Shown: positions 13,977-64,000 of the stretch, one piece after another
How positions within the stretch are numbered: the stretch's first letter is position 1
Layout: the number at the start of each line of letters is the position of its first letter
Origin: Salinivirgaceae bacterium
GTDB lineage: Bacteria > Bacteroidota > Bacteroidia > Bacteroidales > SZUA-534
Direction: 5' to 3'
Length of the DNA: 64,000 bases
Assembly: GCA_017551905.1 (NCBI GenBank)
Contig: JAFZKK010000149.1
Location: 9-64,008 of the forward strand
Notes under the pieces: generated by a model
What the model was told of the DNA's origin: nothing
What the model saw: only the letters and a program-made list of their open reading frames with translations
The model's database searches: none
Made by a program: the position numbers and the translations under genes

Positions 13977-16900
13977 ATGCGTAAAACGATATTAACCAAT
14001 GTCTTAATCGCCGTATTTCTGTTGACGGCACTTGGCGTTTCCGCCCAAAAGACACAAATCTATCTTGATGAGGATTACGACTACCGAATAGGCGTCGATT
14101 TGTTTAACAAGCAGCACTATTCGCAGGCGCAGCAGTTCTTTGAGCGTGTTGTGGCGCACTACGGCAACGAGTTTTCCGACATCAAAGCCGATGCGGAGTA
14201 TTATGCGGCTTTGTGCGCGCTCGAGCTTTTCAACAGCGACGCCGAATATCGCATTGGCAAGTTCATAAACGAGTATCCCGAGAGTCCGCGCACACGGGTG
14301 GCTTATTTCGAAATGGGCCGCTATCAGTATCGGGCCAACCATTATAAAGAGGCGCTCGACTATTTCGACCGTGTGTGGAAGCAGAATCTGAACAAGGAGC
14401 AGCTTGCCGAGCTCTATTTCAAGAAAGGCTACAGCTATTTCAAACTCAAACAGTACGACCGTGCGTCGAAGATGTTCTACGAGCTTATCGACGGGAAAAG
14501 CAAATACGCCAATCCGGCAATCTATTTCTACGCTCACATAGCCTATACCAACAAGAATTACGAGACGGCGCTCAACAATCTACAAAAGATTGAGTCCGAC
14601 CCGACATTTGCGCCGGTTGTGCCATACTACAGGCTGCAGATTTACTTTATCCAAGGCAAGGACGACAAGGTTATTGAGCTTGGAAAATCACTTTTTGAGC
14701 AGACCGACGCCAAGCGCCAGGCCGAGATGTCGCGCATAGTGGGAGAGGCGCTCTACAACAAGGAGATGTACACCGAGGCCGTTCCCTATCTGGAGATTTA
14801 CAAGAGCAAGGCCGACAACTACACCCGCGAAGACATCTATCAGCTCGGCTACGCCTATTATAAGACAGGCGATTTCCAACAGGCGGCAACCACAATGTCA
14901 AATGTTACCAATATAAAAGATGAACTGACGCAGAACGCCTATTTCCACATCGCTTACTCAAATATGCAGCTTCAGCAGAAGGAGCAGGCGCGCATGGCTT
15001 TTGCCGCTGCATCGAAGTACGATTTCAACGAGCGGATAAAAGAACAGTCGTTGCTCAATTATGCTAAACTGTCTTACGAACTATCGTATTCGCCTTTCAA
15101 TGAGACGATTAAAGCTTTCAATCAATATCTGGAACAATATCCCAACTCGGTTCATCGCGATGAGGCTTACGAGTATCTAGTGAAGGCTTATCTGTCGTCG
15201 AAGAACTATCAGGCGGCGCTTGAGTCGATTGCCAAAATCAAAAACAAGACGCCCGAGATGCAGTCGGCATGGCAGCGCGTGGCTTATTTCCGCGGCTTGG
15301 AGCTCTACAACAACCTGAAATTTGAGGAGTCGGTTGTGGCGTTCGACAAAGTTATTGAGCTGAAGGCTTACGACAAGGAAATCAGGGCTTTAGCGCAGTA
15401 TTGGAAAGGTGAGGCGCTATACCGGCTCGAGAAATACACCGATGCCGCCGCCGCCTACAACCAACTTCTGACAACGCCCGGAGCCTACACAATGCCTGAG
15501 TACAAGACTTGCTATTATAACATCGGCTACTGCCATTTCAAAAATAAAGACTATACAAAGGCTGCCGACTGGTATCGCAAATACACCGAGAAAACCAGCG
15601 ACGCCGACACCGCCAAGCTGGCTGACAGCTACATCCGCATTGGCGACTGTTTCTTTGTTACGTCGAAGTTCAGCGACGCATCGCTGTTCTACGGAATGGC
15701 AGCCGACCTTAACGCGTTCGATGTCGAATACGCATTGTTCCAGAAAGGTTTTGCAATGGGACTTGGCAAAGATTTGACCGGCAAGATAAAGACAATGAGC
15801 GAGTTGCTTCGCCGTTACCCGAAATCGAACTATGCCGCCGACGCGCTTTTCGAGCGTGCGCGCGCCTACACCATTATCGATTCAACACAATTGGCAATCA
15901 ACGATTTCCACACGCTTGCCAAGAATTACCCAAACAGCTCGTATGTTGTTAAATCGCTGTTACAGACAGGTTTGCTCTATTATGCCGATGGTCAGAACTA
16001 TCTGGCTATCGACAATTTCAAGAGTGTGATTGAGAAATATCCGGGCACATCGGAGGCCGACGAGGCGCTTTTCGCTTTGAAGAATGTCTATGTCGATATG
16101 AACAAGGTTGACGACTATTTCGACTATGCCAAGAGCCGCGGAAACCTGACCGATGTCGATATGTCGGAGCGCGATTCGCTTACGTATGCTTCAGCCGAAA
16201 AGGTCTATATGACAGGCAATTGGCGTGAGGCCGGAGGCTTGTTCGACAGCTATCTCGACAAGTTCCCCGAAGGCAAATTCTCGCTCAATGCCACTTACTA
16301 TCGCGGCGACTGCAACTTGAAGATGCGCAACAACGACAAGGCTCGTGAGGATTTCGAGGCTATAGCCGCCCGTCCTAAGAATATGTTCACCGAGGCGTCG
16401 TTGCTGAGTGCAGCATCGCTTGCCGAGAGTGCAAAGGATTACAAACAGGCCGTCGAGCTTTATAAGAAGCTGGAAGACAATGCCGAAGTGAAATCGAACT
16501 TGATGATTGCGCGCGAAGGTCAGATGCAAAATGCTTTTGCCGACAGCAATTTCAATGCGGCAATCGAGGCGGCGCGTAAAGTACTGATAACCGACAAGAT
16601 AACTGAGGAGCAGATTCGCCGTGCACGTTATGTGATGGCCGTAAGCTACTATCAGACGCACCAAGCCGACCCGGCAATAACTCAGTTCCGCATTCTGGCG
16701 CTCGACATGACGAGCAAGGAGGGAGCAGAGTCGCAGTATATGGTTGCCCGAATGCTGTTTGAGCAGGGCGAGTTGCAAAAGTCGGAGGAGGCTGTCAATG
16801 CGCTCATCTCGTCGGGAACATCGCATTTCTACTGGATTGCCAAGGCGTTCTTCTTGCTGTCTGATATCTGCATGGAGCGTGGCGACCGTTTCCAGGCCAA

Positions 16901-17441
16901 GGCCAACTTGCAGAGTGTTATTGAGAACTACGGCGACACCTCCGACGGCATTGTTGACGAAGGCAACGCCAAGTTGAAACTCATTACCGATGAGGAGAAC
17001 GAGAAGTTTGTTGAGGATAATTCGACGCAGGAGGTAGTGATTAAGTTCAACGAGAACAATTCGGAAATGGAGTCGGAGGATGATGACGAAGAAGAAGCGC
17101 AACCGGAACCGGCACCCGAACCAGCCGTTGAGGAGGCTCCCAAAACCGAATCGATGCAAGTGGTAGAACCGCAAAATACTGAAACAAAACAGGTTGAACC
17201 GACTGAAAACGATACTCTGCAAGAGACAGAAACAACCGAAGACGCTGGCACGCAGACCGAAACTGAAAGTGCTGAAAGTCAGTCGGCCAACGAAACCGAA
17301 CAGTCGACAGCCGAAAGCGAACCTGAAGCCGCAGAGCCGCAAGCTGAGGAACAGCAGGAACAGAATACAGAACAGACTGATACTGAGCCTGCTAACGACA
17401 ATCAAGAACAAGACGAGGCTGAAAATCAAGAACAAGAATAA
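13977..17441 (+). CDS. large tetratricopeptide-repeat protein with acidic low-complexity C-terminal tail
   Basis: Signal peptide without a lipobox cysteine. Repeated TPR-like A/Y/F-spaced helices run throughout. The last ~130 residues are E/Q/T/D/P-rich (EEAQPEPAPEPAVEE...NQEQDEAENQEQE). Confidence 0.8.
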   Translation: MRKTILTNVLIAVFLLTALGVSAQKTQIYLDEDYDYRIGVDLFNKQHYSQAQQFFERVVAHYGNEFSDIKADAEYYAALCALELFNSDAEYRIGKFINEYPESPRTRVAYFEMGRYQYRANHYKEALDYFDRVWKQNLNKEQLAELYFKKGYSYFKLKQYDRASKMFYELIDGKSKYANPAIYFYAHIAYTNKNYETALNNLQKIESDPTFAPVVPYYRLQIYFIQGKDDKVIELGKSLFEQTDAKRQAEMSRIVGEALYNKEMYTEAVPYLEIYKSKADNYTREDIYQLGYAYYKTGDFQQAATTMSNVTNIKDELTQNAYFHIAYSNMQLQQKEQARMAFAAASKYDFNERIKEQSLLNYAKLSYELSYSPFNETIKAFNQYLEQYPNSVHRDEAYEYLVKAYLSSKNYQAALESIAKIKNKTPEMQSAWQRVAYFRGLELYNNLKFEESVVAFDKVIELKAYDKEIRALAQYWKGEALYRLEKYTDAAAAYNQLLTTPGAYTMPEYKTCYYNIGYCHFKNKDYTKAADWYRKYTEKTSDADTAKLADSYIRIGDCFFVTSKFSDASLFYGMAADLNAFDVEYALFQKGFAMGLGKDLTGKIKTMSELLRRYPKSNYAADALFERARAYTIIDSTQLAINDFHTLAKNYPNSSYVVKSLLQTGLLYYADGQNYLAIDNFKSVIEKYPGTSEADEALFALKNVYVDMNKVDDYFDYAKSRGNLTDVDMSERDSLTYASAEKVYMTGNWREAGGLFDSYLDKFPEGKFSLNATYYRGDCNLKMRNNDKAREDFEAIAARPKNMFTEASLLSAASLAESAKDYKQAVELYKKLEDNAEVKSNLMIAREGQMQNAFADSNFNAAIEAARKVLITDKITEEQIRRARYVMAVSYYQTHQADPAITQFRILALDMTSKEGAESQYMVARMLFEQGELQKSEEAVNALISSGTSHFYWIAKAFFLLSDICMERGDRFQAKANLQSVIENYGDTSDGIVDEGNAKLKLITDEENEKFVEDNSTQEVVIKFNENNSEMESEDDDEEEAQPEPAPEPAVEEAPKTESMQVVEPQNTETKQVEPTENDTLQETETTEDAGTQTETESAESQSANETEQSTAESEPEAAEPQAEEQQEQNTEQTDTEPANDNQEQDEAENQEQE

Positions 17442-17454
17442 AGGAGATATACCG

Positions 17455-19149
17455 ATGAAAAGTAATAGAATAAGTATATTGACTATCATATTGTTAGGCG
17501 CAACAACAGCATTCGCGCAGAACAACAACCTGAACCAAGAGGTGAAAGTGATAAAGGCATACGAGCCGGTAATCAACGATGCGTATAAAATCAGCTCGCT
17601 GCCCAAAATTGTTGACACTCTCAACGTTACGCCAACTTTCGACTACGATGACGGCGTTACTCCGGAGATGTACAAAACCAAATACAAACCAAAGCAGATG
17701 AAACCAGCAAAGCTTGTCGCCGAGCCGCTCCCGAAGCTCTACAACGTGTATGTGAAAGGCGGTTTCGGAATGTACACAACGCCGCTACTTAACATCTACA
17801 CCGGCAGCCAGAGGTCGGAAAAATGGCTGTGGAACGCCAACATGAACTACACTTCGAGCAGCGCCAAGGTTAAGAACGAAGACGACAAGCGGGTTTATGC
17901 AGGATTGTCGAAGTTCGACATTAACGGCAGCGTGCACCGCTATTTCAAAAACGATATGGCGGCTTCAATATCAGCTGGTTACGGCAATCGTGGCAATTAT
18001 TATTACGGATATGCCACCGAACTCAATCTGCCCGATTCGCTTATTCCTTTGAAACGGAAAGATATTGAGAAACAAAGTGTTAACTACTATAACATAGGAG
18101 CGACGGTCTATTCGACAAACCTTGATTCGGCTGAAATCGACTATAAGGTGTCGCTTGGCTACAACGGCCTGAAAACCAAAGACAGCAAGAGCGAAAACAA
18201 TATCCATTTCGACGGATATATTAGCTATCTACTTGATAAAGAGTTCTTAGGCGTTAAATGTGTGATAGACAATTACAAAACGCAAGGTCTTGCTAATGAT
18301 GTCAACTCGGCGGTTGTCAATTTCAATCCGTGGGTAGGCGCCTACGGCCGCAAATGGCGCGTCAAGGTGGGTGTCAACACTTTCTACGACCAGCGCAATC
18401 AGAAGTATATGTTCTTCCCCGACATCAGCATGCAGTATAACATTATCGACTATTTCCTACTGCCGTATGTCGAGCTGAACGGCAACTATAAAGTGCACGA
18501 TTACAAGGATATGTACTTCGAAAATCAGTTTGTGAAATCCGATTTGCGGATAAACCCGACCAAGACGCGAATCAATCTCGCTTTGGGTTTCCGCGGCAAC
18601 ATTAGCTCGCGTATCGCATTCAATATCAAGGCCGAATATGCTAAAATTGACAATCAGTATTTCTTCGTGAACGACACATCGACTTTGTTGCACGAGAAAT
18701 TCTTTGTTGTGTACGACGACATTATGCGTACTCACATCTTGGGCGAAATATCGTACAAGACGAGCGAGAAATTTAAGATTGGCCTGAAGGGACACTATTA
18801 TATTTATGATATGTCGACAGAGCTGGAGGCATGGCACTTGCCAACTTACAACATTAGCCTCGATGCTAGCTACAACCTGTCGAACAAGATAATAGCTACG
18901 GCCAATGTCTATGCCGTAAGCCGCCGTCAGGCTTGCCTCTATCAGGTGGACGGGCCGGGTAAGGTGCTACCTGTGGCCAAAGAGCTCGACGGTGTCATCG
19001 ACATCAATCTGGGCGTGGAGTACCGCATCACCAAACGGTTCTCCGGCTTCCTCGATTTGAACAACTTGACCGGCAGCCGCTATTACCAGTGGAACCAGTA
19101 TGCCAACCAGCGCTTCAATTTCATGCTTGGGTTGACTTACGCATTTTAA
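17455..19149 (+). CDS. outer-membrane beta-barrel protein (putative porin family)
   Basis: The ATG at 17455 gives the signal peptide MKSNRISILTIILLGATTAFAQ (the track ORF from 17194 overlaps the upstream tail). Alternating beta-strand pattern with a C-terminal LGLTYAF. Confidence 0.6.
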   Translation: MKSNRISILTIILLGATTAFAQNNNLNQEVKVIKAYEPVINDAYKISSLPKIVDTLNVTPTFDYDDGVTPEMYKTKYKPKQMKPAKLVAEPLPKLYNVYVKGGFGMYTTPLLNIYTGSQRSEKWLWNANMNYTSSSAKVKNEDDKRVYAGLSKFDINGSVHRYFKNDMAASISAGYGNRGNYYYGYATELNLPDSLIPLKRKDIEKQSVNYYNIGATVYSTNLDSAEIDYKVSLGYNGLKTKDSKSENNIHFDGYISYLLDKEFLGVKCVIDNYKTQGLANDVNSAVVNFNPWVGAYGRKWRVKVGVNTFYDQRNQKYMFFPDISMQYNIIDYFLLPYVELNGNYKVHDYKDMYFENQFVKSDLRINPTKTRINLALGFRGNISSRIAFNIKAEYAKIDNQYFFVNDTSTLLHEKFFVVYDDIMRTHILGEISYKTSEKFKIGLKGHYYIYDMSTELEAWHLPTYNISLDASYNLSNKIIATANVYAVSRRQACLYQVDGPGKVLPVAKELDGVIDINLGVEYRITKRFSGFLDLNNLTGSRYYQWNQYANQRFNFMLGLTYAF

Positions 19150-19383
19150 ATTTCGAAAAAGACTACTTTAAACATAAACTTTATGATGCTACCTAAAATC
19201 TTCAAATTCCGAAAGATAGAATCGAAAATTTCGGAAACTGAAAACCGAACCAGTAGGCAACAACACCTTGCGGAACTGGGAATTTTTATGTCGGAAGATG
19301 AATTTAAATTGAAAATCAAACAGTTGAAAATGGCAAATGTCAGCATCTGAAATTTGCCTGACTGAATTGTAAAAAGATTAAAT

Positions 19384-20322
19384 ATGGAAACAGAAAAAGT
19401 GAAAGTCCTGATAATTGGTTCAGGACCAGCAGGATACACTGCCGCCATTTACGCTTCGCGGGCTAACTTGCAGCCGGTTTTAATTCAGGGTTTGCAGGCT
19501 GGTGGACAGCTTACGCAAACAACTGAGATTGAGAACTTTCCGGGTTATCCGAATGGCATCGATGGCAATCAGATGATGGAGGAGTTCCGTCAGCAAGCCG
19601 AGCGTCTTGGCACCGACATCCGCTTTGGCGTTGTAACCAAAGTCGATTTTGCCGATGGCAAGCATCTTGTAACTGTCGATGGCGACAAAATAATTGACGC
19701 TGAGGCTGTTATTATTGCTACTGGCGCCACGGCCAAATATCTTGGTTTGCCCTCGGAGGAGAAATACAAGGGCAGCGGAGTGTCGGCTTGCGCCACTTGC
19801 GACGGCTTTTTCTACCGTAAGAAAGATGTGGCTGTGGTTGGCGGCGGCGACACGGCTTGCGAGGAAGCCACCTACTTGGCGCATCTTTGCAACAAGGTTT
19901 ACATGATTGTCCGCAAAAACTACCTGCGCGCCTCAAAAGCCATGCAGGACCGCGTGATGAACACACCTAACATTGAGATATTGTTCGAACACAACACTTT
20001 AGACTTGTTTGGCGATGGTGTTGTTGAGGGCGCAAACTTGGTTTACCGCCAGGGCACTCCCGACGAGCAAAAGCGTCAGATTAAGATTGACGGTTTCTTC
20101 CTTGCCATTGGTCATCACCCGAACAGCACTGTTTTTCAGCCGTTTGTGAAGACCGACGAGGACGGATACATTCTCACCGAGCCAAACTCAGGCCGCACCA
20201 ACGTGCCGGGCGTGTTTGCTTGTGGTGATGTTATGGACCGCACCTACCGTCAGGCTATTGTGGCTGCGGGTTCGGGCTGCAAGGCCGCGCTTGACGCCGA
20301 GCGTTATCTATTGTCGAAATAG
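19384..20322 (+). CDS. trxB: thioredoxin-disulfide reductase
   Basis: FAD motif IIGSGPAGYTAAIYA, redox-active CATCDG, NADPH motif VVGGGDTACEEA, and a typical length. Confidence 0.95.
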   Translation: METEKVKVLIIGSGPAGYTAAIYASRANLQPVLIQGLQAGGQLTQTTEIENFPGYPNGIDGNQMMEEFRQQAERLGTDIRFGVVTKVDFADGKHLVTVDGDKIIDAEAVIIATGATAKYLGLPSEEKYKGSGVSACATCDGFFYRKKDVAVVGGGDTACEEATYLAHLCNKVYMIVRKNYLRASKAMQDRVMNTPNIEILFEHNTLDLFGDGVVEGANLVYRQGTPDEQKRQIKIDGFFLAIGHHPNSTVFQPFVKTDEDGYILTEPNSGRTNVPGVFACGDVMDRTYRQAIVAAGSGCKAALDAERYLLSK

Positions 20323-56766: not shown

Positions 56767-56996
56767 TGTTACAACTTTTAGTTTCCCGATTACGAACATA
56801 CGAAAAAATACTATTGAGGTTACGATTTAGTCGAAAAAAACTGAATAAGATGGTTGGAAAGCCTGCATTTCGCAGGTTGACAAGAAATGTTTTTTTATGG
56901 GATACATATTTAAAAAAGAGTATTATTGTAGTTTAAAATGGAATATAGCCGGAGATATATTCAATATTCACGGCTGCAAAATTGGATTTAACAGAT

Positions 56997-58076
56997 ATGG
57001 ACGGATTCAAAAACATTGAGATTAAGAACTTCAGAGGCATTGACCATCTGACAATTGATGATTGTTCACGCGTGAATGTCTTTCTCGGGCAAAACGGTTC
57101 GGGGAAGTCATCAATCCTTGAAGCATTATTGATGATTGCAGGAATGTCAAATCCGGAACTTCCCCGAAATATCAATATGTTACGTTCAAAGGGAACATAT
57201 GGGCATTTTCTTGACGTAAGGTATATGTTTCACAATTTAATGTTAATGAATCCTCCGGAAATTTCCACAATTCAAACAAAAGGAGCGAAACGACATCTTA
57301 CTCTAAAAATGCCATTTGTTTTCGACGAACAATCTCAAACCACAACGCCGATAGGCCAAATCCAACGGTCCGACGCAATGGTTCAAGTCAATCAAGTGGA
57401 GATGAATTTTGATATTACAGAAGACGAAATCGTTAATAGGTATAAAAGCACATTGTCCTTCAACCAACAAGGTCCCATTAGGGGAAAAATTGCTGACGGA
57501 TATCAAGAAAAAATGTATGCATCACTGATTCCTGCGAATATTCCTACCGGGAATTCGACAAGTGATTTGTCGGAATTAGTAAAACGGAAAATGAAACAAT
57601 TGGTTGTTGACCGGCTTGTCTATTTTGATAATAGGATAACGACCATTGAAGTATTGTCTGACGGCGTTTTTGTTGGTATCGAAGGTGTGCCGGAATTATT
57701 ACCGGTCACAATGCACGGCGATGGTATGTTCCGTTATTTGACAATTGTGGCGGCGTCCGCCAATCCAATATCCGATGTTGTTCTGATTGACGAAATCGAA
57801 AATGGTCTGCATTATTCAGCCTACAAAAAACTCTGGGAAGCCATCTTTGCTTTGGCAACCGAAACAAACAAACAAATATTTATAACAACCCACAGCAAGG
57901 AAACTCTATACCGGTTGAACGAAATGCTTGAAGAGAAACCCTGCTACCAAGATGCATTGCGGCTATATACAATAGAGAACACCAAACTTAAAGGGCAGCA
58001 AGCATACAAATATTCCTTTGAGGAACTGAATGCCGCTTGCAAGAATGGTGTGGAAATTAGAAGTTTAGCATTATGA
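56997..58076 (+). CDS. ABC/SMC-type ATPase (AAA_21-like; AriA/OLD-family ATPase-like)
   Basis: Walker A GQNGSGKSS, signature-like HGDGMF, Walker B VVLIDEIENGLH, and His-switch ITTHS. The ATG at 56997 is preferred (the track start at 56982 is a TTG). Confidence 0.75.
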   Translation: MDGFKNIEIKNFRGIDHLTIDDCSRVNVFLGQNGSGKSSILEALLMIAGMSNPELPRNINMLRSKGTYGHFLDVRYMFHNLMLMNPPEISTIQTKGAKRHLTLKMPFVFDEQSQTTTPIGQIQRSDAMVQVNQVEMNFDITEDEIVNRYKSTLSFNQQGPIRGKIADGYQEKMYASLIPANIPTGNSTSDLSELVKRKMKQLVVDRLVYFDNRITTIEVLSDGVFVGIEGVPELLPVTMHGDGMFRYLTIVAASANPISDVVLIDEIENGLHYSAYKKLWEAIFALATETNKQIFITTHSKETLYRLNEMLEEKPCYQDALRLYTIENTKLKGQQAYKYSFEELNAACKNGVEIRSLAL

Positions 58077-58684
58077 AAGAACGTTTTCACATTATTGTTG
58101 AAGGAATTGCTGATTTAGTGTTTTTTGAACAATACTACCAACATCTGTTCGGGAAACCAGCGCCAGAAGGTTTTATTTTTAAAACTGACGGAAAAGACAA
58201 TTTGCATAAGTTTGTGAACAAGATGCGTAGTATGACGGCCAATGACGGGGTGAATCTTGTTATCTTCGATGCAGATAAAGACATAGATGCAAGGCGAAAC
58301 GAATTATTGGAGTGGAAAGAAAAAGCGGGCGTTAACTTCGAGTTGTTTTTGCTGCCAAATAACAAAAATAAAGGTGCCTTGGAAGATTTGTTGGAAAGCA
58401 TCATAAATCCGAATAACCGACCGATCTTCAATTGTTGGGAAGATTACGAAAAAGAACTTGTCAAATTAGAGATTCCTGGCCGCACACCACCGCCATTAAC
58501 CACTCCCGCCAAGAAAACAAAGATTTATGGATATTTGGAGGCATTGCTTGGACCAACGAATGACGAAAAAGAATTGATAAAAGAGCGAAATAGAGAGTAT
58601 TTCAACACAAAACATTGGAATTTGGATGCGGAGTATTTGGAGCCGTTGAGGAGGTTTTTAATTGAGCATTTAAAAGAAAACTAA
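58073..58684 (+). CDS. TOPRIM-like protein (DUF4435/DUF4276-like; AriB/OLD-nuclease-like partner of the ATPase)
   Basis: N-terminal IIVEGIADLVFF (TOPRIM Glu) and VIFDADKD (DxD). About 200 aa. The start overlaps the ATPase stop (ATGA at 58073-58076). Confidence 0.55.
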   Translation: MKERFHIIVEGIADLVFFEQYYQHLFGKPAPEGFIFKTDGKDNLHKFVNKMRSMTANDGVNLVIFDADKDIDARRNELLEWKEKAGVNFELFLLPNNKNKGALEDLLESIINPNNRPIFNCWEDYEKELVKLEIPGRTPPPLTTPAKKTKIYGYLEALLGPTNDEKELIKERNREYFNTKHWNLDAEYLEPLRRFLIEHLKEN

Positions 58685-59904
58685 TGAAAAAGAAAAACTA
58701 TACAGTAATTGACCTTTTTGCAGGGTGTGGGGGCTTATCGCTAGGCTTATATCAAGCCGGCTGGAAGGGTCTTTTTGCTATCGAAAAGAATGCATTTGCA
58801 TTTGAAACTCTGAAATACAATCTGATTGACAACAAAAAACACTTCCAATGGCCTGATTGGCTGCCTCAAAAGGAACATGACATCAATGAAGTGCTGGAAA
58901 AATATCCAAAGCAATTGGAAGCATTGCAAGGCAAGGTTGATTTGGTAGCAGGAGGACCACCTTGTCAAGGTTTTTCCATGGCAGGGAAACGTGTTGAAGA
59001 TGATGTGCGTAATCAATTAGTATTCTCGTATATTAAGTTTATCGACTTAGTGCGGCCGAAAATGATTCTTTTTGAAAATGTAAAAGGTTTTACATACGCT
59101 TTCGACAAAGGGAAATCAACTTCAACCGAGAATGAACCTTATTCTCACAAAGTAATTCGTGAATTGAGAAACTTGGGATACAATGTAAGACCCCACGTGA
59201 TTGATTTTTCTGAATACGGCGTACCACAACGCCGCAAACGTTTTATTCTTGTTGGGATTCGACAAGAATTAGGTGCACCTGAGCAATTTGAGGATTTGTT
59301 GAAAGCCAATCGCGATACTTTTTTGACAAAAAAAGGATTGAAAACAACCACCACTTTGCAAGATGCCATTTCAGACCTTTTGCGTTCCAATGGGGAAGTT
59401 TCTTCTCCAGACAGAAAAGGGTTTTATTCTGGAATATATGATAAGAAAAAACTTACGGCATACGAAAAAATAATGCGTGGAGATTACCCAAAAACACATG
59501 ATATAGCCGATAGCCATAGTTTTGCCAAACAAACACCAGATAAAATCAATTGTTACAAACGGTTGCTTGCTGAATACCCACAACGAGGTAAACGGATTGA
59601 CGGGAAATCCCGTGAGCAGTGGGGTATCAAACAACGAGGTATTACGGTGCTGGATCCCAATGCCGTTTCGCCAACCATTACGGGGCATCCTGACGATTAT
59701 CTGCACTATTGTGAGCCTCGTATCATGACCGTTCGTGAGTGCGCTCGTATCCAATCGTTTCCCGATTGGTACGAGATTAAGAAAAAGTACACCACTGGCG
59801 GCAAGATGCGCAAGTTGGAAGTTCCTCGTTATACACAAATCGGCAATGCCATTCCGCCTTTGTTTGCAGAACAAGCGGGGAATGTACTTAAAATGATGAT
59901 ATAA
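58684..59904 (+). CDS. dcm: DNA (cytosine-5)-methyltransferase
   Basis: Motif I DLFAGCGGLSLG, motif IV GGPPCQGFS, motif VI ENV, motif VIII QRRKRF, motif X GNAIPPLF. Confidence 0.95.
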   Translation: MKKKNYTVIDLFAGCGGLSLGLYQAGWKGLFAIEKNAFAFETLKYNLIDNKKHFQWPDWLPQKEHDINEVLEKYPKQLEALQGKVDLVAGGPPCQGFSMAGKRVEDDVRNQLVFSYIKFIDLVRPKMILFENVKGFTYAFDKGKSTSTENEPYSHKVIRELRNLGYNVRPHVIDFSEYGVPQRRKRFILVGIRQELGAPEQFEDLLKANRDTFLTKKGLKTTTTLQDAISDLLRSNGEVSSPDRKGFYSGIYDKKKLTAYEKIMRGDYPKTHDIADSHSFAKQTPDKINCYKRLLAEYPQRGKRIDGKSREQWGIKQRGITVLDPNAVSPTITGHPDDYLHYCEPRIMTVRECARIQSFPDWYEIKKKYTTGGKMRKLEVPRYTQIGNAIPPLFAEQAGNVLKMMI

Positions 59905-59907
59905 GAT

Positions 59908-62457
59908 ATGGCAAGTCTTCACTTTAAAACAAATGTGCAAATAAAAAGTATCATTGGTAAAGATCTTATCAATGATGATAATATTGCCATCCTTGAACTC
60001 GTCAAGAATTCCTTTGATGCAGATGCAAAACGAGTGGATATTTCATTTCTGAACCTTAAAGAAAATGACGATAGCGAAGTCGAGGAATATTCGCATAAAA
60101 CCTCGAAATTGATATTAGCTGATGATGGAGTCGGAATGGACATAGTGGATATTCGTGAGAAATGGTTAAATATCGCTTATTCCGAGAAAAAAACAAAGTC
60201 CAGACAGTATAATAGATTAATGGCTGGAGCCAAAGGTGTTGGACGTTTTTCATGTGACAGGTTAGGCAAATATCTTAATTTATACTCTACGAAAGATAGC
60301 AACACATACTATTCTTTAAAGATAGATTGGAAAAAATTTGAAATAAATGACAAAGATACAGAAATACAATCTATTGCTCTGGATTATGAAGTGTTAACTT
60401 CTTCGGAGTTATTGCAACGTGGCATCCAACCGTTTAAGCATGGTGTTGTCTTGGAGATCATAAAATTGCGCAGCAATTGGGTTGCATATGATGGCAATCG
60501 CTGGATAACAGACAAATTAACAAACTTGAAAAAGTATCTCGAAAAACTCATCAATCCCAATCAGGCATTTGAGAAGAATGATTTTGGTATATATCTAAAT
60601 GCACCAGAATTTTTGGCAGAGAATGCCGAACAGGAAGAAAATGACAAGTTTATAGGCAAAGTAGAAAATACGATTTTTCAGAAACTTGATTTTAAAACAA
60701 CAAGCATTGAGTGCAAATCAATAGAAGGTGGCTCTCAAATACAAACAACTCTTAAAGATAAAGGAGAAACTATTTATTGGATTAAGGAAGTATCGGATTA
60801 TTATCCGGCCATCAAGGATTTTAAAATCACTTTATATTTCCTTAATACTTATGCTAAAGCCTTTTTTACCAAACAAACAGGTATTCGCTCTGTTGATTAC
60901 GGTTCTATTTTTTTGTTTCTTAATGGGTTTAGAATACCTCCGTATGGAGAATTTGGCGATGATTGGTTGAAACTTGATCAAAGGCGTGCACAAGGCTATG
61001 CGCGTTTTATTAGTGCTCGTGATTTGGTTGGTCAGATAGAAATATTGGATGTAGATGAAACTTTTCAGATTGTATCCAGCAGGGAAGGATTGGTCAAAAA
61101 CGACAACTATGACATACTTACGAATAAAAAAAATGGTTTATTTTATAGGGTATTGAGACGATTGGAAAGGTATGTCGTTGATGGTTTGGATTGGGATAGT
61201 ATTCCTGAAGAAGATAGAAACAAAACGTCAGAAATCGAGAAGAAAATTATTAGTGGTGAACTTGTTGAAAAAGATTTAAAATATAAAGAAGATTCTAATA
61301 TAAAGCGACGTAGAATCTATGAAAGTATACATTATATTATTAATGCAAATCCGCAAAAGGTAATAGAATTATATATTAATGAGGACTTGATTGAGTCAAA
61401 AGTCGCAGAGGAAAAAGTGCTGGCTGAACAAGAATTTTCCCAGCTATTATCCGACTTTGAAAATAAAAAAGTATCTGGTGAACTTTTGGCACAAATATTA
61501 AGAAGAAAGGCAGAAGAGAGTGTGGAATTAGAGAAACAATTGGCTGCTTTCTCAAGATATACTACAACAGAGGCCACCTCTAAAGCTATAGCAGAGATTC
61601 AACAGTATAAAAAAACGATAGAAGAACAAACGCATGTTATTGAAGCTCTGAAAAAACAATTGGACGAAATCCAAAAGGAGATTGACGCGACAAAACAGGC
61701 TGCCCACATACGTATCTCGACTGCTGAAAAGAAGCAACAAGAAGCGGAAAGAGAGAGAGATTTGTTCAAACAAGCCAATACATACCTACAATCCACGCGA
61801 ACCATATCTGAGGAAGAAGAATCTTTTATACACATCATAAATGTCTATGCAGCAGAAATTGAACCGGCGTTTGATAAGATTGACCATATTGTAAAGTCAA
61901 ATAGTTCTATATCGAAAGAGTTTATTCTTGAGATTGGAGTCATTCGCGCTTTCTTTGATAAAATCATAAGCACAGCGAGTCTGTTGACAAAAGCTAACAT
62001 AAAAAAACTTGCAGATAAAGAGATAATAAATTTATCCGATTTTATCGTTGAATACATAAATAAGTGTTCGGAAGTTCTCTTTAGGGATATAGATTTTAAA
62101 ATCATCAATGAGAAAAATGCAGAATATTTCGGAGCATATAGTTTATTGGACATATCTGTATTGATAGATAATTTAATTAGCAATGCGAAAAAAGAGCATG
62201 CTGATAAAATACAAATAAATATCTTCCAAAAAGAGAACAAATATGTTATAGATTTTTCAGATTCTGGTAATGGAGTTTCAGACCCCACTATAGGAAAGCA
62301 CATGTTTGACATAGGTGTAACTACCCGCTATGGAGGATCTGGAATAGGCCTCGCATCAGTTAAAAAGATAGTGAACGATATGAATGGGAAAATCTCGTTC
62401 TTGGGGAATAATATATATCTCAAAGGAGCAACATTTAGAATAGAATTTGACATATGA
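59908..62457 (+). CDS. dual-GHKL protein: N-terminal MORC/Hsp90-like ATPase (HATPase_c_3-like), coiled coil, C-terminal histidine-kinase-like ATPase
   Basis: N-terminal module: ELVKNSFDADA (N-box), LADDGVGMD (G1), GAKGVGRFS (G2). Long K/E/Q-rich helical segment. C-terminal module: LIDNLISNAKKE (N-box), DFSDSGNGV (G1), GGSGIGLASVKK (G2). A candidate phospho-acceptor motif, ESFIHIINVY, lies upstream of the second module. Confidence 0.7.
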   Translation: MASLHFKTNVQIKSIIGKDLINDDNIAILELVKNSFDADAKRVDISFLNLKENDDSEVEEYSHKTSKLILADDGVGMDIVDIREKWLNIAYSEKKTKSRQYNRLMAGAKGVGRFSCDRLGKYLNLYSTKDSNTYYSLKIDWKKFEINDKDTEIQSIALDYEVLTSSELLQRGIQPFKHGVVLEIIKLRSNWVAYDGNRWITDKLTNLKKYLEKLINPNQAFEKNDFGIYLNAPEFLAENAEQEENDKFIGKVENTIFQKLDFKTTSIECKSIEGGSQIQTTLKDKGETIYWIKEVSDYYPAIKDFKITLYFLNTYAKAFFTKQTGIRSVDYGSIFLFLNGFRIPPYGEFGDDWLKLDQRRAQGYARFISARDLVGQIEILDVDETFQIVSSREGLVKNDNYDILTNKKNGLFYRVLRRLERYVVDGLDWDSIPEEDRNKTSEIEKKIISGELVEKDLKYKEDSNIKRRRIYESIHYIINANPQKVIELYINEDLIESKVAEEKVLAEQEFSQLLSDFENKKVSGELLAQILRRKAEESVELEKQLAAFSRYTTTEATSKAIAEIQQYKKTIEEQTHVIEALKKQLDEIQKEIDATKQAAHIRISTAEKKQQEAERERDLFKQANTYLQSTRTISEEEESFIHIINVYAAEIEPAFDKIDHIVKSNSSISKEFILEIGVIRAFFDKIISTASLLTKANIKKLADKEIINLSDFIVEYINKCSEVLFRDIDFKIINEKNAEYFGAYSLLDISVLIDNLISNAKKEHADKIQINIFQKENKYVIDFSDSGNGVSDPTIGKHMFDIGVTTRYGGSGIGLASVKKIVNDMNGKISFLGNNIYLKGATFRIEFDI

Positions 62458-63158
62458 GAACACATTGCTTAATAATAGATGATGATAATCAGGAAGAATA
62501 TTTCAATACTCATGTGCAGCGCGTATTAGGAGCTGAAGGTATTGAAGTCGTTCCTGTTTTTATCAAACCTACAGAGCGAAAATACATAAAACCAGACCAT
62601 TCCGGTTTGGATATAGATTCCATTATTTCGGATTGTAATAACTTGATAGAAACATTAGATGTATCCATCATTGTTTCTGATTATAAGATTGCCACAAGAA
62701 AAGATTCTTTTACTGGTGTGGATATAGTTTTAGCTCTTATAGAAAGATATCCCCAAATTTATAAGATATTATATTCTGCCACAATTAAAGATGCCATTAA
62801 ACAAGTCTTATCATTATTGCCTGCGAAAGCTAAAATTGATGATATAGATGTCGATAAAGTTATTGAAGATTTGGCAAGGATAGCCAAAATAAATGATTTT
62901 GTCAGTGGTAAAGGGTATGAGCAGAAACTAATAAAACATCTTCGCAATCCGGAAATACAATATAAGCAGCATTTAATCAATGTTCTTAAAGAATGTGCCC
63001 CAGATATTGTATTTAAATCATGTTATCCTCCGTTTGTTGGAAAGACATTAAAGGAAATTGGGAAAGAAATAGAATCTGATACACTCCAAGGACGTGAATT
63101 TCAGGAAGAATTGATTCGTCAAACACTTGCATATATAGTAGCCGTCAATCATGAGTAA
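62454..63158 (+). CDS. receiver-like (REC-fold) protein with uncharacterised helical C-terminal half
   Basis: CLIIDDD (beta1 acidic cluster), SIIVSDYKI (candidate phospho-acceptor Asp76, nt 62679-62681), KILYSAT (beta4 Ser/Thr). The start overlaps the upstream stop (ATGA). Confidence 0.45.
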   Translation: MRTHCLIIDDDNQEEYFNTHVQRVLGAEGIEVVPVFIKPTERKYIKPDHSGLDIDSIISDCNNLIETLDVSIIVSDYKIATRKDSFTGVDIVLALIERYPQIYKILYSATIKDAIKQVLSLLPAKAKIDDIDVDKVIEDLARIAKINDFVSGKGYEQKLIKHLRNPEIQYKQHLINVLKECAPDIVFKSCYPPFVGKTLKEIGKEIESDTLQGREFQEELIRQTLAYIVAVNHE

Positions 63159-63792
63159 AACTGTTTGTATATATTCTCAAGAGAGGGACGGTTCTACGGA
63201 TTTCCTAAAACCTCTATATGACCATATTTGTACGACGCTCTCTGCAGATGGCGTTGGCTATGATGCGGATAGTGAAGAGGATACTATTTCCAGAATATAT
63301 GATGCCACTAAGGATGCAGATACAATTATTTTCTTAGGGCATGGTAATAGCAAGGGGCTATATGCATGTGTTCAGGATAATTTTGAATTATTCAATCAGA
63401 AGAATGTTGCTATGTTGACTGATAAGTCATTGTTCCTACTTGCGTGTAGATCATCTGATTTTATAAAAAGATTCTCCTTAACTAATGCTATCGGCTTTGG
63501 GCATTTACCTACAAGTAATGAAGATGCTAAACATTGGAATAATGAGCATAGTATCGCATTGAATGATTTTTCTAAAGATGATATTAAACTTTACGATAAC
63601 GCAATAGTAAGTATCCTCTACAATGCGATAGCCCCCGAAACAATATCAAATTCCAATCTGCTATATAATAGGATTAAGTTACAAGCGAGTATGGAAATTG
63701 TCAAGTGTCTTATTCTGCACAAAGATAACCCGCATTACCGGAAGATAGCCGATTTGTTATTCTATTTGCAGAAAGATATACGGATACAATAA
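63151..63792 (+). CDS. hypothetical protein with caspase/CHAT-like His...Cys dyad pattern
   Basis: A hydrophobic strand plus GHG (TIIFLGHGNSKG, His64 at 63340-63342). About 35 residues later, a hydrophobic strand plus AC (SLFLLACRSS, Cys99 at 63445-63447). It overlaps the upstream gene by 8 nt. The function is inferred only from this pattern. Confidence 0.35.
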   Translation: MSKTVCIYSQERDGSTDFLKPLYDHICTTLSADGVGYDADSEEDTISRIYDATKDADTIIFLGHGNSKGLYACVQDNFELFNQKNVAMLTDKSLFLLACRSSDFIKRFSLTNAIGFGHLPTSNEDAKHWNNEHSIALNDFSKDDIKLYDNAIVSILYNAIAPETISNSNLLYNRIKLQASMEIVKCLILHKDNPHYRKIADLLFYLQKDIRIQ

Positions 63793-63821: not shown

Positions 63822-64000
63822 ATGAGGAAAAAAGCCGTAACTATTATGCCCAAGAAAAAATATACATTCATAGACCTATTTGCAGGAGCTGGCGGGCTTT
63901 CTGAAGGTTTTATTAGAGCAGGATTTGAACCTGTAGCGCACATTGAAATGAACAAGTATGCGTGTGACACTCTTCGCTCAAGGATGAAACACTATGGCTA
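63822..64000 (+). CDS. dcm: second DNA (cytosine-5)-methyltransferase, N-terminal fragment (continues past window end)
   Basis: Motif I is FIDLFAGAGGLSEGF. The start is either ATG 63822 or ATG 63846. The ORF is open at the window edge. Confidence 0.85.
   Translation, partial: MRKKAVTIMPKKKYTFIDLFAGAGGLSEGFIRAGFEPVAHIEMNKYACDTLRSRMKHYG

Follow-up and report, generated by a model that had tools for sequence, protein, structure and literature searches.

The 64,000-nucleotide (nt) stretch of DNA analysed here (the window), from a contig of a Salinivirgaceae bacterium (JAFZKK010000149.1), contains at positions 56997–58684 a pair of genes that encode an ATP-binding cassette (ABC) ATPase and a small TOPRIM-like protein of the Pfam family DUF3226 (the partner). 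The pair is probably a self-contained, AbiL-type ATPase–TOPRIM anti-phage module of the OLD-like group, a relative of PARIS rather than a PARIS system. This group of OLD-like ABC ATPases with a TOPRIM component includes P2 Old, Gabija GajA, retron Eco8, PARIS AriAB, MADS MAD3–MAD4 and AbiL. The features of the pair are as follows.

56997–58076, forward strand: ABC ATPase gene, 359 amino acids (aa) from its ATG
58073–58684, forward strand: small TOPRIM-like (DUF3226) gene, 203 aa
58073–58076, forward strand: ATGA stop/start overlap of 4 nt that joins the ATPase and DUF3226 genes, read from the sequence

An earlier note on this DNA had described a 359-aa ABC/SMC-type ATPase followed by a 203-aa TOPRIM-type protein at the head of an operon, with an ATGA overlap between the two genes and tight coupling to a methyltransferase-containing module. 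This architecture holds, and both open reading frames (ORFs), the overlap and every quoted motif were found at the coordinates given there. The ATPase carries a Walker A motif, GQNGSGKSS (residues 31–39, with Gly31, Lys37 and Ser38), a signature-like MHGDG (239–243), a Walker B/D-loop, LIDEIENGLH (263–272, with Asp265 and Glu266), and an H-loop, TTHS (297–300, with His299). An alternative TTG start at 56982 would yield a 364-aa protein. The DUF3226 protein carries the motifs IIVEG (Glu10) and FDADKD (Asp66 and Asp68). The coupling to the methyltransferase module consists of a 1-nt overlap: in the TAATG at 58682–58686, the TAA stop codon of the DUF3226 gene and the ATG of a C5 methyltransferase gene (start 58684) have one base in common. 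Four more genes, tightly packed, come after the pair.

Gene order and motifs are both conserved. Among 83 non-redundant Bacteroidales loci, whose DUF3226 protein is 55–77% identical to that of the window, the ATPase gene is located immediately 5′ of the DUF3226 gene in all cases (83/83; the genes overlap by 4 or 1 nt or are 3 nt apart), and the 4- or 1-nt overlap is present in nearly all of them. Across 80 ATPase orthologues, the Walker A motif, MHGDG, the Walker B residues Asp265 and Glu266 and the H-loop residue His299 are at least 95% conserved, and a segment at approximately 102–238 is variable, a pattern that fits an active ATPase with a variable insertion. In alignments of 123 and 77 diverse members of the partner family, residues Glu10, Asp14, Asp66, Asp68, Glu104, Lys148, Pro95 and Gly101 are conserved at 91–100% (Glu10, 97–100%; Asp66, 100%; Asp68, 92%; Asp14, 91–100%; Glu104, 99%; Lys148, 96%). 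This pattern agrees with the signature of the TOPRIM/OLD-like nuclease superfamily, in which an invariant Glu follows strand 1, a DxD follows strand 3 and more acidic positions are retained. Given the conserved gene order and the conserved catalytic motifs, the two genes are not a chance pair of ORFs. On the same grounds of sequence, the ABC ATPase and the TOPRIM-type acidic site both appear intact, and the two genes appear to be translationally coupled.

The ATPase has Pfam matches to AAA_15 (1e-24) and AAA_21 (3.5e-20), which are Rad50/SMC-like ABC families. Its best model in PADLOC is AbiLi (PDLC02336; 1.9e-59, 200 bits), which aligns residues 5–355 with positions 3–340 of a 340-position profile, and its second is PDC-M38A, a defence candidate that matches over the full length (4e-45). 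The AriA models of PARIS score 5e-25 and 4.5e-23 (87 and 81 bits) and cover residues 5–114 and 208–301, the nucleotide-binding lobes only. Weaker PADLOC matches were obtained with mad3 (1.2e-17) and with GajA (1.6e-17), the latter again limited to the ATPase lobes, and the NCBIfam MAD3 model (NF047739) reached 39.7 bits, with a cut-off of 420. Relatives of known structure in the PDB, among them Rad50, the ATPase of retron Ec83 and AriA, align with the ATPase on the Walker A lobe only. A housekeeping repair ATPase of the RecF/Rad50 type was considered and ruled out, as these matches are confined to the Walker A lobe, the genes are accessory and congeners lack them.

The partner matches DUF3226 over its full length (4.2e-13, 50 bits; cut-off 27). 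It also shows a local match to PDC-M38B at residues 83–129 (5.5e-8) and a match to the mad4 model at E = 3e-3. The alternative assignment to DUF4276 that the earlier note had offered found no support: neither DUF4276 (PF14103) nor RloB (PF13707) matched the partner, or any of 77 relatives at E ≤ 0.01. No PHROG family matched the partner. As the partner alone scores weakly on defence models, its family was tested as well. A HMMER scan of 1.84 billion cluster representatives returned 765 clusters at E ≤ 1e-3, and the family set comprised 77 full-length members with 30–65% identity to the partner. Their profile matches were as follows.

Pfam DUF3226: 77/77 family members, best 1.3e-22
Pfam OLD-like_TOPRIM: 24/77, best 5.6e-7
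Pfam DUF4435: 7/77, weak, best 1.7e-5
Pfam OLD-like_TOPRIM_1: 2/77, best 0.0034
Pfam Toprim_2: 1/77, best 0.00064
PADLOC AbiLii: 69/77, best 5.4e-14
PADLOC PDC-M38B: 68/77, best 3.5e-12
PADLOC mad4: 12/77, best 6.2e-7
PADLOC AriB: 7/77, the partner not among them, best 4.4e-7

The proposal of a TOPRIM-type partner is therefore upheld at the level of the family, through OLD-like_TOPRIM and, in the seven weak cases, DUF4435; the partner itself stays below the cut-off. Taken together, the profile matches of the two proteins assign the pair to the AbiL type (PADLOC AbiL/PDC-M38, with a DUF3226 partner).

Structure prediction is weakly consistent with this placement. A first AlphaFold model of the partner, built from 27 close homologues, was poor in its C-terminal half (predicted local distance difference test score, pLDDT, 70.6) and was replaced by a second AlphaFold2 model from 85 more diverse sequences (pLDDT 95.5; predicted template modelling score 0.91). 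The predicted fold has a four-stranded beta–alpha core, residues 5–94, followed by a helical domain. The best Foldseek matches in the PDB are TOPRIM-containing C-terminal regions of OLD proteins, from Burkholderia (6NK8, E = 0.023) and Xanthomonas (6NJV, E = 0.075), and the Thermus OLD protein is at rank 8. In a library of viral structures, many of the more probable matches are TOPRIM primase domains of the DnaG type (probability up to 0.89, E ≥ 0.048). Class 1 OLD proteins (P2 Old; 6NK8, 6NJV) resemble the pair in their E...DxD TOPRIM signature and associated ABC ATPase, and differ in that the ATPase and TOPRIM parts are fused in one polypeptide rather than encoded by separate genes. From the profiles and the predicted fold, the partner is best placed in the AbiLii/DUF3226 lineage as a divergent protein of the TOPRIM/OLD-like type, and is a putative metal-dependent nuclease, with Glu10, Asp14, Asp66, Asp68, Glu104, Lys148 and Lys150 as the candidate active-site residues. 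Gabija was rejected as an identity for the pair: GajA is an ATPase–TOPRIM fusion that works with a UvrD-like helicase, GajB, and here the proteins are split, GajA models match the ATPase lobes only and the island has no helicase gene.

The earlier note had labelled the pair PARIS-like. In PARIS, too, a sensor ATPase and a TOPRIM effector are split into two genes, both systems fall within the wider group of AAA_15/21 ATPases with TOPRIM proteins, and both are often found next to restriction systems. AbiL and MAD3–4 have been classed with PARIS as systems of an ABC ATPase plus a TOPRIM protein (PMC11464382; PMC13064643). Outright membership of the AriA/AriB family could draw on the common two-gene layout, the partial AriA matches of the ATPase and the seven partner relatives that weakly match DUF4435 and AriB. 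It is nevertheless highly improbable. The partner has no match to DUF4435 (PF14491) at E ≤ 0.1 in the Pfam scan, and its best match to an AriAB model has E = 0.015; the effector is DUF4435 in PARIS and DUF3226 here. AbiLi outscores the AriA models on the ATPase by more than 110 bits. The proteins also differ in size. AriA is an AAA_15 ATPase of approximately 55 kDa, whose insertions IS1 and IS2 are a criterion for PARIS membership, and AriA chains in the PDB (8ux9/8v45) have 464 aa, against 359 aa, or approximately 100 residues fewer, in the window. AriB is approximately 35 kDa (PMC11464382), compared with the 203 aa of the partner. PARIS membership was thus rejected on the profile scores of both defining proteins, and the PARIS label gives way to AbiL-type/DUF3226. 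The partner lineage is a sister to AriB's DUF4435 family and not a member of it.

AbiL itself offers the closest comparison. There, too, the gene of an ABC ATPase overlaps that of a small TOPRIM/OLD-like protein behind it; both genes are needed, and the system acts once phage transcription has taken place (PMC13064643, citing Deng et al. 1999). The two differ in setting, as the pair occurs in a Bacteroidales host and leads a restriction island, whereas the AbiL prototype stands alone on a plasmid. AbiLi of Lactococcus may also be longer, with 453 aa in a superposition of PARIS-i and AbiLi (PMC13064643) against 359 aa here. PDC-M38, whose A model matches the ATPase over its full length and whose B model matches 68 of the 77 partner relatives, is a computational candidate only.

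Relatives of the pair are also found as isolated genes. In other Bacteroidota, related pairs of 42–45% identity occur by themselves, flanked by ppi and gatB. Of 143 plasmid records with a match to the ATPase, most are approximately 4 kb in size and 135 are from Klebsiella. The one record inspected, NZ_OW970520.1 (4167 bp, Klebsiella pneumoniae), is a non-mobilisable 4.1-kb ColE1-type plasmid whose sole accessory genes encode an ATPase of the AbiLi type (2.6e-58) and a protein with a DUF3226 match (6.6e-27). The latter is an unannotated 210-aa ORF that runs across the origin of the record and is absent from the distributed gene table; it matches PDC-M38B over its full length (3.9e-11). A tblastn search of plasmids with the DUF3226 protein of the window returned nothing at E ≤ 1e-3, and the plasmid homologues surfaced via the ATPase.

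The plasmid also bears on the idea of an addiction or stabilisation module, in which a TOPRIM toxin and an ATPase antitoxin would stabilise the island or plasmid that carries them. Sole accessory cargo on a small, non-mobilisable replicon would suit such a role, as would the persistence of the pair as the conserved element beside rapidly exchanged genes, and PARIS acts as a type II toxin–antitoxin pair (PMC13064643, citing Deep et al. 2024). However, every characterised relative is a defence system, and in this protein group a toxin–antitoxin mode need not preclude defence. We regard a mainly stabilising function as improbable.

In the Bacteroidales loci the pair is the constant partner of changing neighbours. 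Neighbouring genes were labelled by BLAST against Pfam-annotated neighbours, and same-strand genes 3′ of the pair (the cargo) were counted in the 65 loci whose downstream sequence extends for 5 kb or more.

Any methylase, GHKL, McrB-like or McrC-like gene downstream: 57/65 loci
McrB-like gene downstream: 45/65
Methylase gene downstream: 41/65
McrC-like gene downstream: 35/65
GHKL gene downstream: 28/65
Dcm gene directly adjoining the pair: 25/65
None of these restriction families downstream: 8/65

The gap between the pair and an adjoining Dcm gene is mostly approximately -13 to +15 nt and reaches 101 nt, and no one cargo family is universal among the 65 loci. With the same labelling, a restriction-type gene was found within 8 kb upstream of the pair in none of 67 loci. 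Of 80 loci, 62 have the Bacteroidetes -7 motif, TAnnTTTG, no more than 200 nt 5′ of the ATPase gene, in most cases 30–40 nt before the ATG; the background is 9%. The pair is therefore the constant, promoter-proximal head of variable restriction islands in this Bacteroidales clade.

This polar arrangement invites a reading of the pair as a PARIS-like guard. Such a guard would respond to phage anti-restriction proteins, or to a breakdown of the Dcm/GHKL and McrBC/LlaJI-type systems beside it, by deploying its nuclease as a second line of defence. PARIS provides a precedent, being triggered by Ocr, which inhibits type I restriction–modification systems and BREX (PMC11464382), and the strict 5′ position before restriction-type arrays, with a Dcm gene directly after the pair in 25 loci and overlapping it by 1 nt in the window, is what a guard might show. 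The cargo nonetheless varies widely, to the point that 8 of the 65 loci lack the labelled restriction families, and this diversity implies that no single system is guarded. Small plasmids and chromosomes carry related pairs by themselves, AbiL-type systems have no known trigger, and defence genes are commonly co-located without functional coupling. A guard function is accordingly judged unlikely, and the self-contained AbiL-type module remains the preferred reading.

Comparison of closely related pairs delimits the unit that moves. Pairs with 96–98% protein identity carry entirely different cargo. At the nucleotide level, loci L041 and L045 are 97% identical from 54 nt 5′ of the ATPase ATG to approximately 25–30 nt before the DUF3226 stop codon, and this 1.72-kb promoter-plus-pair segment is all that they share, as both flanks are without homology. 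The downstream break in homology recurs approximately 6–35 nt before the DUF3226 stop codon, after the ...LKxFL codons, in four sets of loci (L041/L045/L047, L004/L008, L016/L018 and L020/L032), such that the last 8–10 or so DUF3226 codons and all DNA 3′ of them differ between islands with near-identical pairs. The pair thus appears to be inherited and exchanged as a discrete unit of approximately 1.7 kb, comprising a promoter and two genes. It is conceivable, though doubtful, that the pair is the fixed, promoter-bearing head of a modular island in which cargo is swapped 3′ of the TOPRIM gene or within its last 10 or so codons, and that it serves as a cargo-agnostic sentinel or as a recombination arm that drives cassette turnover. 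At the 3′ ends of the islands (loci L004–L092), Vsr recurs in 18 loci, NUDIX in 7–9 and a 51–55-aa ORF of the Pmp3 family in 7, and the upstream flanks vary between genomes. The recurring Vsr, NUDIX and Pmp3 genes suggest that the islands have a conserved border on the right or insert preferentially in a certain neighbourhood.

The host genome itself records an insertion. The source contig ends approximately 60 bp past the window, and the island was followed on a near-identical, longer metagenome contig (L002). A blastn comparison with the two closest congeners, which have an empty site, places the left island edge at 56845/56846, 151 nt 5′ of the ATPase gene; position 56845 corresponds to L002 position 8773, where homology to the empty site ends. 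The right edge, also from blastn, is at L002 position 19923, 8 nt before the start of a NUDIX gene. The insertion measures 11.15 kb, and GC content falls from approximately 0.45–0.53 to 0.32–0.40 at approximately 56.8 kb. The two closest congeners (G004 and G006; loci L108 and L109), whose alpha-amylase is 97% identical to that of the window, lack the whole island. In both, the amylase gene is followed by a small ORF, then NUDIX, a 340-aa gene and Vsr; where the 11.15-kb island would lie, they have approximately 370 bp of unrelated DNA. Within the genus, 1 of 16 species carries the DUF3226 gene, and within the family 2 of 33 do. The empty site and the patchy distribution show that the pair is part of a horizontally acquired island, which comprises three modules: the pair, a Dcm/GHKL cassette and a LlaJI/McrBC-like module with a decayed methylase. 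Vsr is kept in both congeners with no methylase nearby and may be a relic of an earlier island.

The island begins with a leader of its own.

56846–56996, forward strand: island-specific leader and presumed promoter region, between the left island edge and the ATPase gene

In the window, the leader contains only one-mismatch versions of the -7 motif. Just inside the left island edge, approximately 110 nt 5′ of the ATPase start, lies a GC-rich hairpin, GCCTGC-ATTTC-GCAGG (56864–56884), with a T-run approximately 20 nt past it; one possible function is that of a terminator shielding the island on its amylase side.

Downstream of the pair, the window contains the second module and the start of the third.

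58684–63792, forward strand: four-gene cassette that adjoins the pair; context, separable
58684–59904, forward strand: C5 DNA methyltransferase (Dcm), Pfam DNA_methylase 5.5e-60
59908–62457, forward strand: 849-aa protein with a MORC-like GHKL and a histidine-kinase-like GHKL domain (HATPase_c_3 1.1e-18, HATPase_c 1.5e-17)
62454–63158, forward strand: receiver-like 234-aa protein
63151–63792, forward strand: 213-aa protein
63822–64000, forward strand: truncated second C5 methyltransferase, a 65-aa remnant, at the start of the third module

The cassette (Dcm, a GHKL protein of 849–866 aa and proteins of approximately 240 and 220 aa) occurs without the ATPase/DUF3226 pair in 4 of 4 independent contexts, in which the GHKL protein is 62–74% identical to that of the window. 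The earlier note had stated that its reading would be weakened if homologous pairs never occurred apart from the downstream genes, and the answer runs in both directions: homologous pairs are found away from the downstream genes, and the cassette is found without the pair. The pair thus appears to be self-contained and to need no particular neighbour, because relatives stand alone, the cassette occurs without it and cargo is exchanged behind near-identical pairs.

These observations also bear on whether the pair is the integral nuclease arm of a methylation-linked system, akin to MAD3–MAD4, that would cut DNA left unmarked by the adjacent methyltransferase. MAD3–MAD4 of MADS is similar in several respects. 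Its TOPRIM protein has approximately 200 aa, with clustered acidic residues and a lysine, its P-loop ATPase is separate, and its operon contains a DNA methyltransferase and a kinase-like ATPase. MAD3 and MAD4 assemble with 2:2 stoichiometry, the TOPRIM subunit being insoluble on its own; their complex has ATPase activity, cleaves DNA in a Mg-dependent manner and is required for MADS defence (PMC13662399). The one-base overlap of the pair with the Dcm start, the weak mad3 and mad4 matches and a cassette in which scans of Pfam, PADLOC and NCBIfam profiles revealed no recognisable classical nuclease domain would all agree with such an arm. On the other hand, the cassette lacks the pair in all four of its other contexts and the pair is seen with many other cargos or none. 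The sequence similarity is remote, the methylase in MADS is an N6-methyladenine (m6A) enzyme and here a C5 enzyme, and no other MADS component was detected. An integral role therefore has little probability in our estimate. MADS membership as such was rejected: MAD3 scores far below its cut-off, the downstream proteins match no mad models and the methylase is of the C5 type.

The cassette is a recurring unit in its own right. It is found in many Prevotella and other Bacteroidales contexts without the pair (loci L120–L128), with GHKL proteins 62–93% identical. In variants with a GHKL protein of approximately 990 aa, this is followed by a Response_reg_2 protein of approximately 520 aa (7e-27). 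PADLOC 2.0 holds no model for the combination of methylase, GHKL, receiver and 213-aa proteins. Beyond the window, at L002 positions 15750–19899, the third module continues with an intact McrB-like AAA_5 protein (535 aa) and a RE_LlaJI-like protein (714 aa), after which the conserved NUDIX gene follows. This module looks like a LlaJI/McrBC-type system that has lost its own methylase, and in the related island L061 a full-length methylase stands at the position of the remnant. It may be methyl-dependent, reliant on the upstream Dcm, or decaying.

A mechanism for the AbiL-type module can be outlined from its relatives, namely P2 Old, the class 1 and class 2 OLD structures, Gabija, PARIS (PMC11464382) and MAD3–MAD4 (PMC13662399). 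The ATPase would oligomerise and bind the TOPRIM subunit, keeping it both stable and restrained. A phage-derived cue, probably sensed via the variable insertion at approximately 102–238, would shift the ATP-dependent conformation of the ATPase, whereupon the TOPRIM subunit would use metal-ion catalysis to cut nucleic acid, which may be DNA (the substrate of OLD, GajA and MAD3–MAD4) or tRNA (that of AriB); in PARIS, AriB is released from a hexameric scaffold and cleaves tRNA-Lys. Either the infection would abort or the invader would be destroyed. PMC13064643 raises the question of whether the PARIS mode of action is common to all ATPase-plus-TOPRIM systems.

Several observations weigh against the assignment of the pair to a self-contained AbiL-type module. 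The match of the partner to OLD-like_TOPRIM (PF20469) is just below the cut-off (21.0 bits, E = 4.9e-4; cut-off 23.2 bits), and its match to PADLOC AbiLii is weak (9.9e-6, 24 bits; residues 38–198, profile positions 8–122 of 125). The structural matches to OLD proteins are also weak, with template modelling scores of 0.36–0.43 (0.43 for 6NJV), 14–15% sequence identity and none at E ≤ 0.001, and neither the partner alone nor the 77-member family profile has a meaningful sequence relative in the PDB. The AbiL label derives from models in PADLOC-DB 2.0, which has two AbiLi/AbiLii pairs, either of which may contain the Lactococcus lactis prototype. In the library searched, no publication on DUF3226 or PDC-M38 and no experiment on this DUF3226 clade were found. 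Finally, a functional link between the pair and its restriction cargo remains conceivable, given that restriction-type genes lie 3′ of the pair in 57 of 65 loci and 5′ of it in 0 of 67. The AbiL-type reading remains the probable one on the combined evidence of both protein families and of the separability of the pair.

The replacement of an attractive PARIS label by AbiL-type/DUF3226 bears on how this group of proteins is described. The DUF3226 branch is missing from the domain list of the published classification (PMC11464382), although it is frequently encountered in Bacteroidales of the gut and rumen and on small plasmids from Klebsiella. For any definition of the methylase cassette as a new system, it matters that the pair forms a module independent of it. 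Furthermore, the head position of the pair, together with the fast turnover of its cargo, makes these islands a tractable natural system in which to ask whether sentinels and restriction systems cooperate, and how defence islands are rebuilt.

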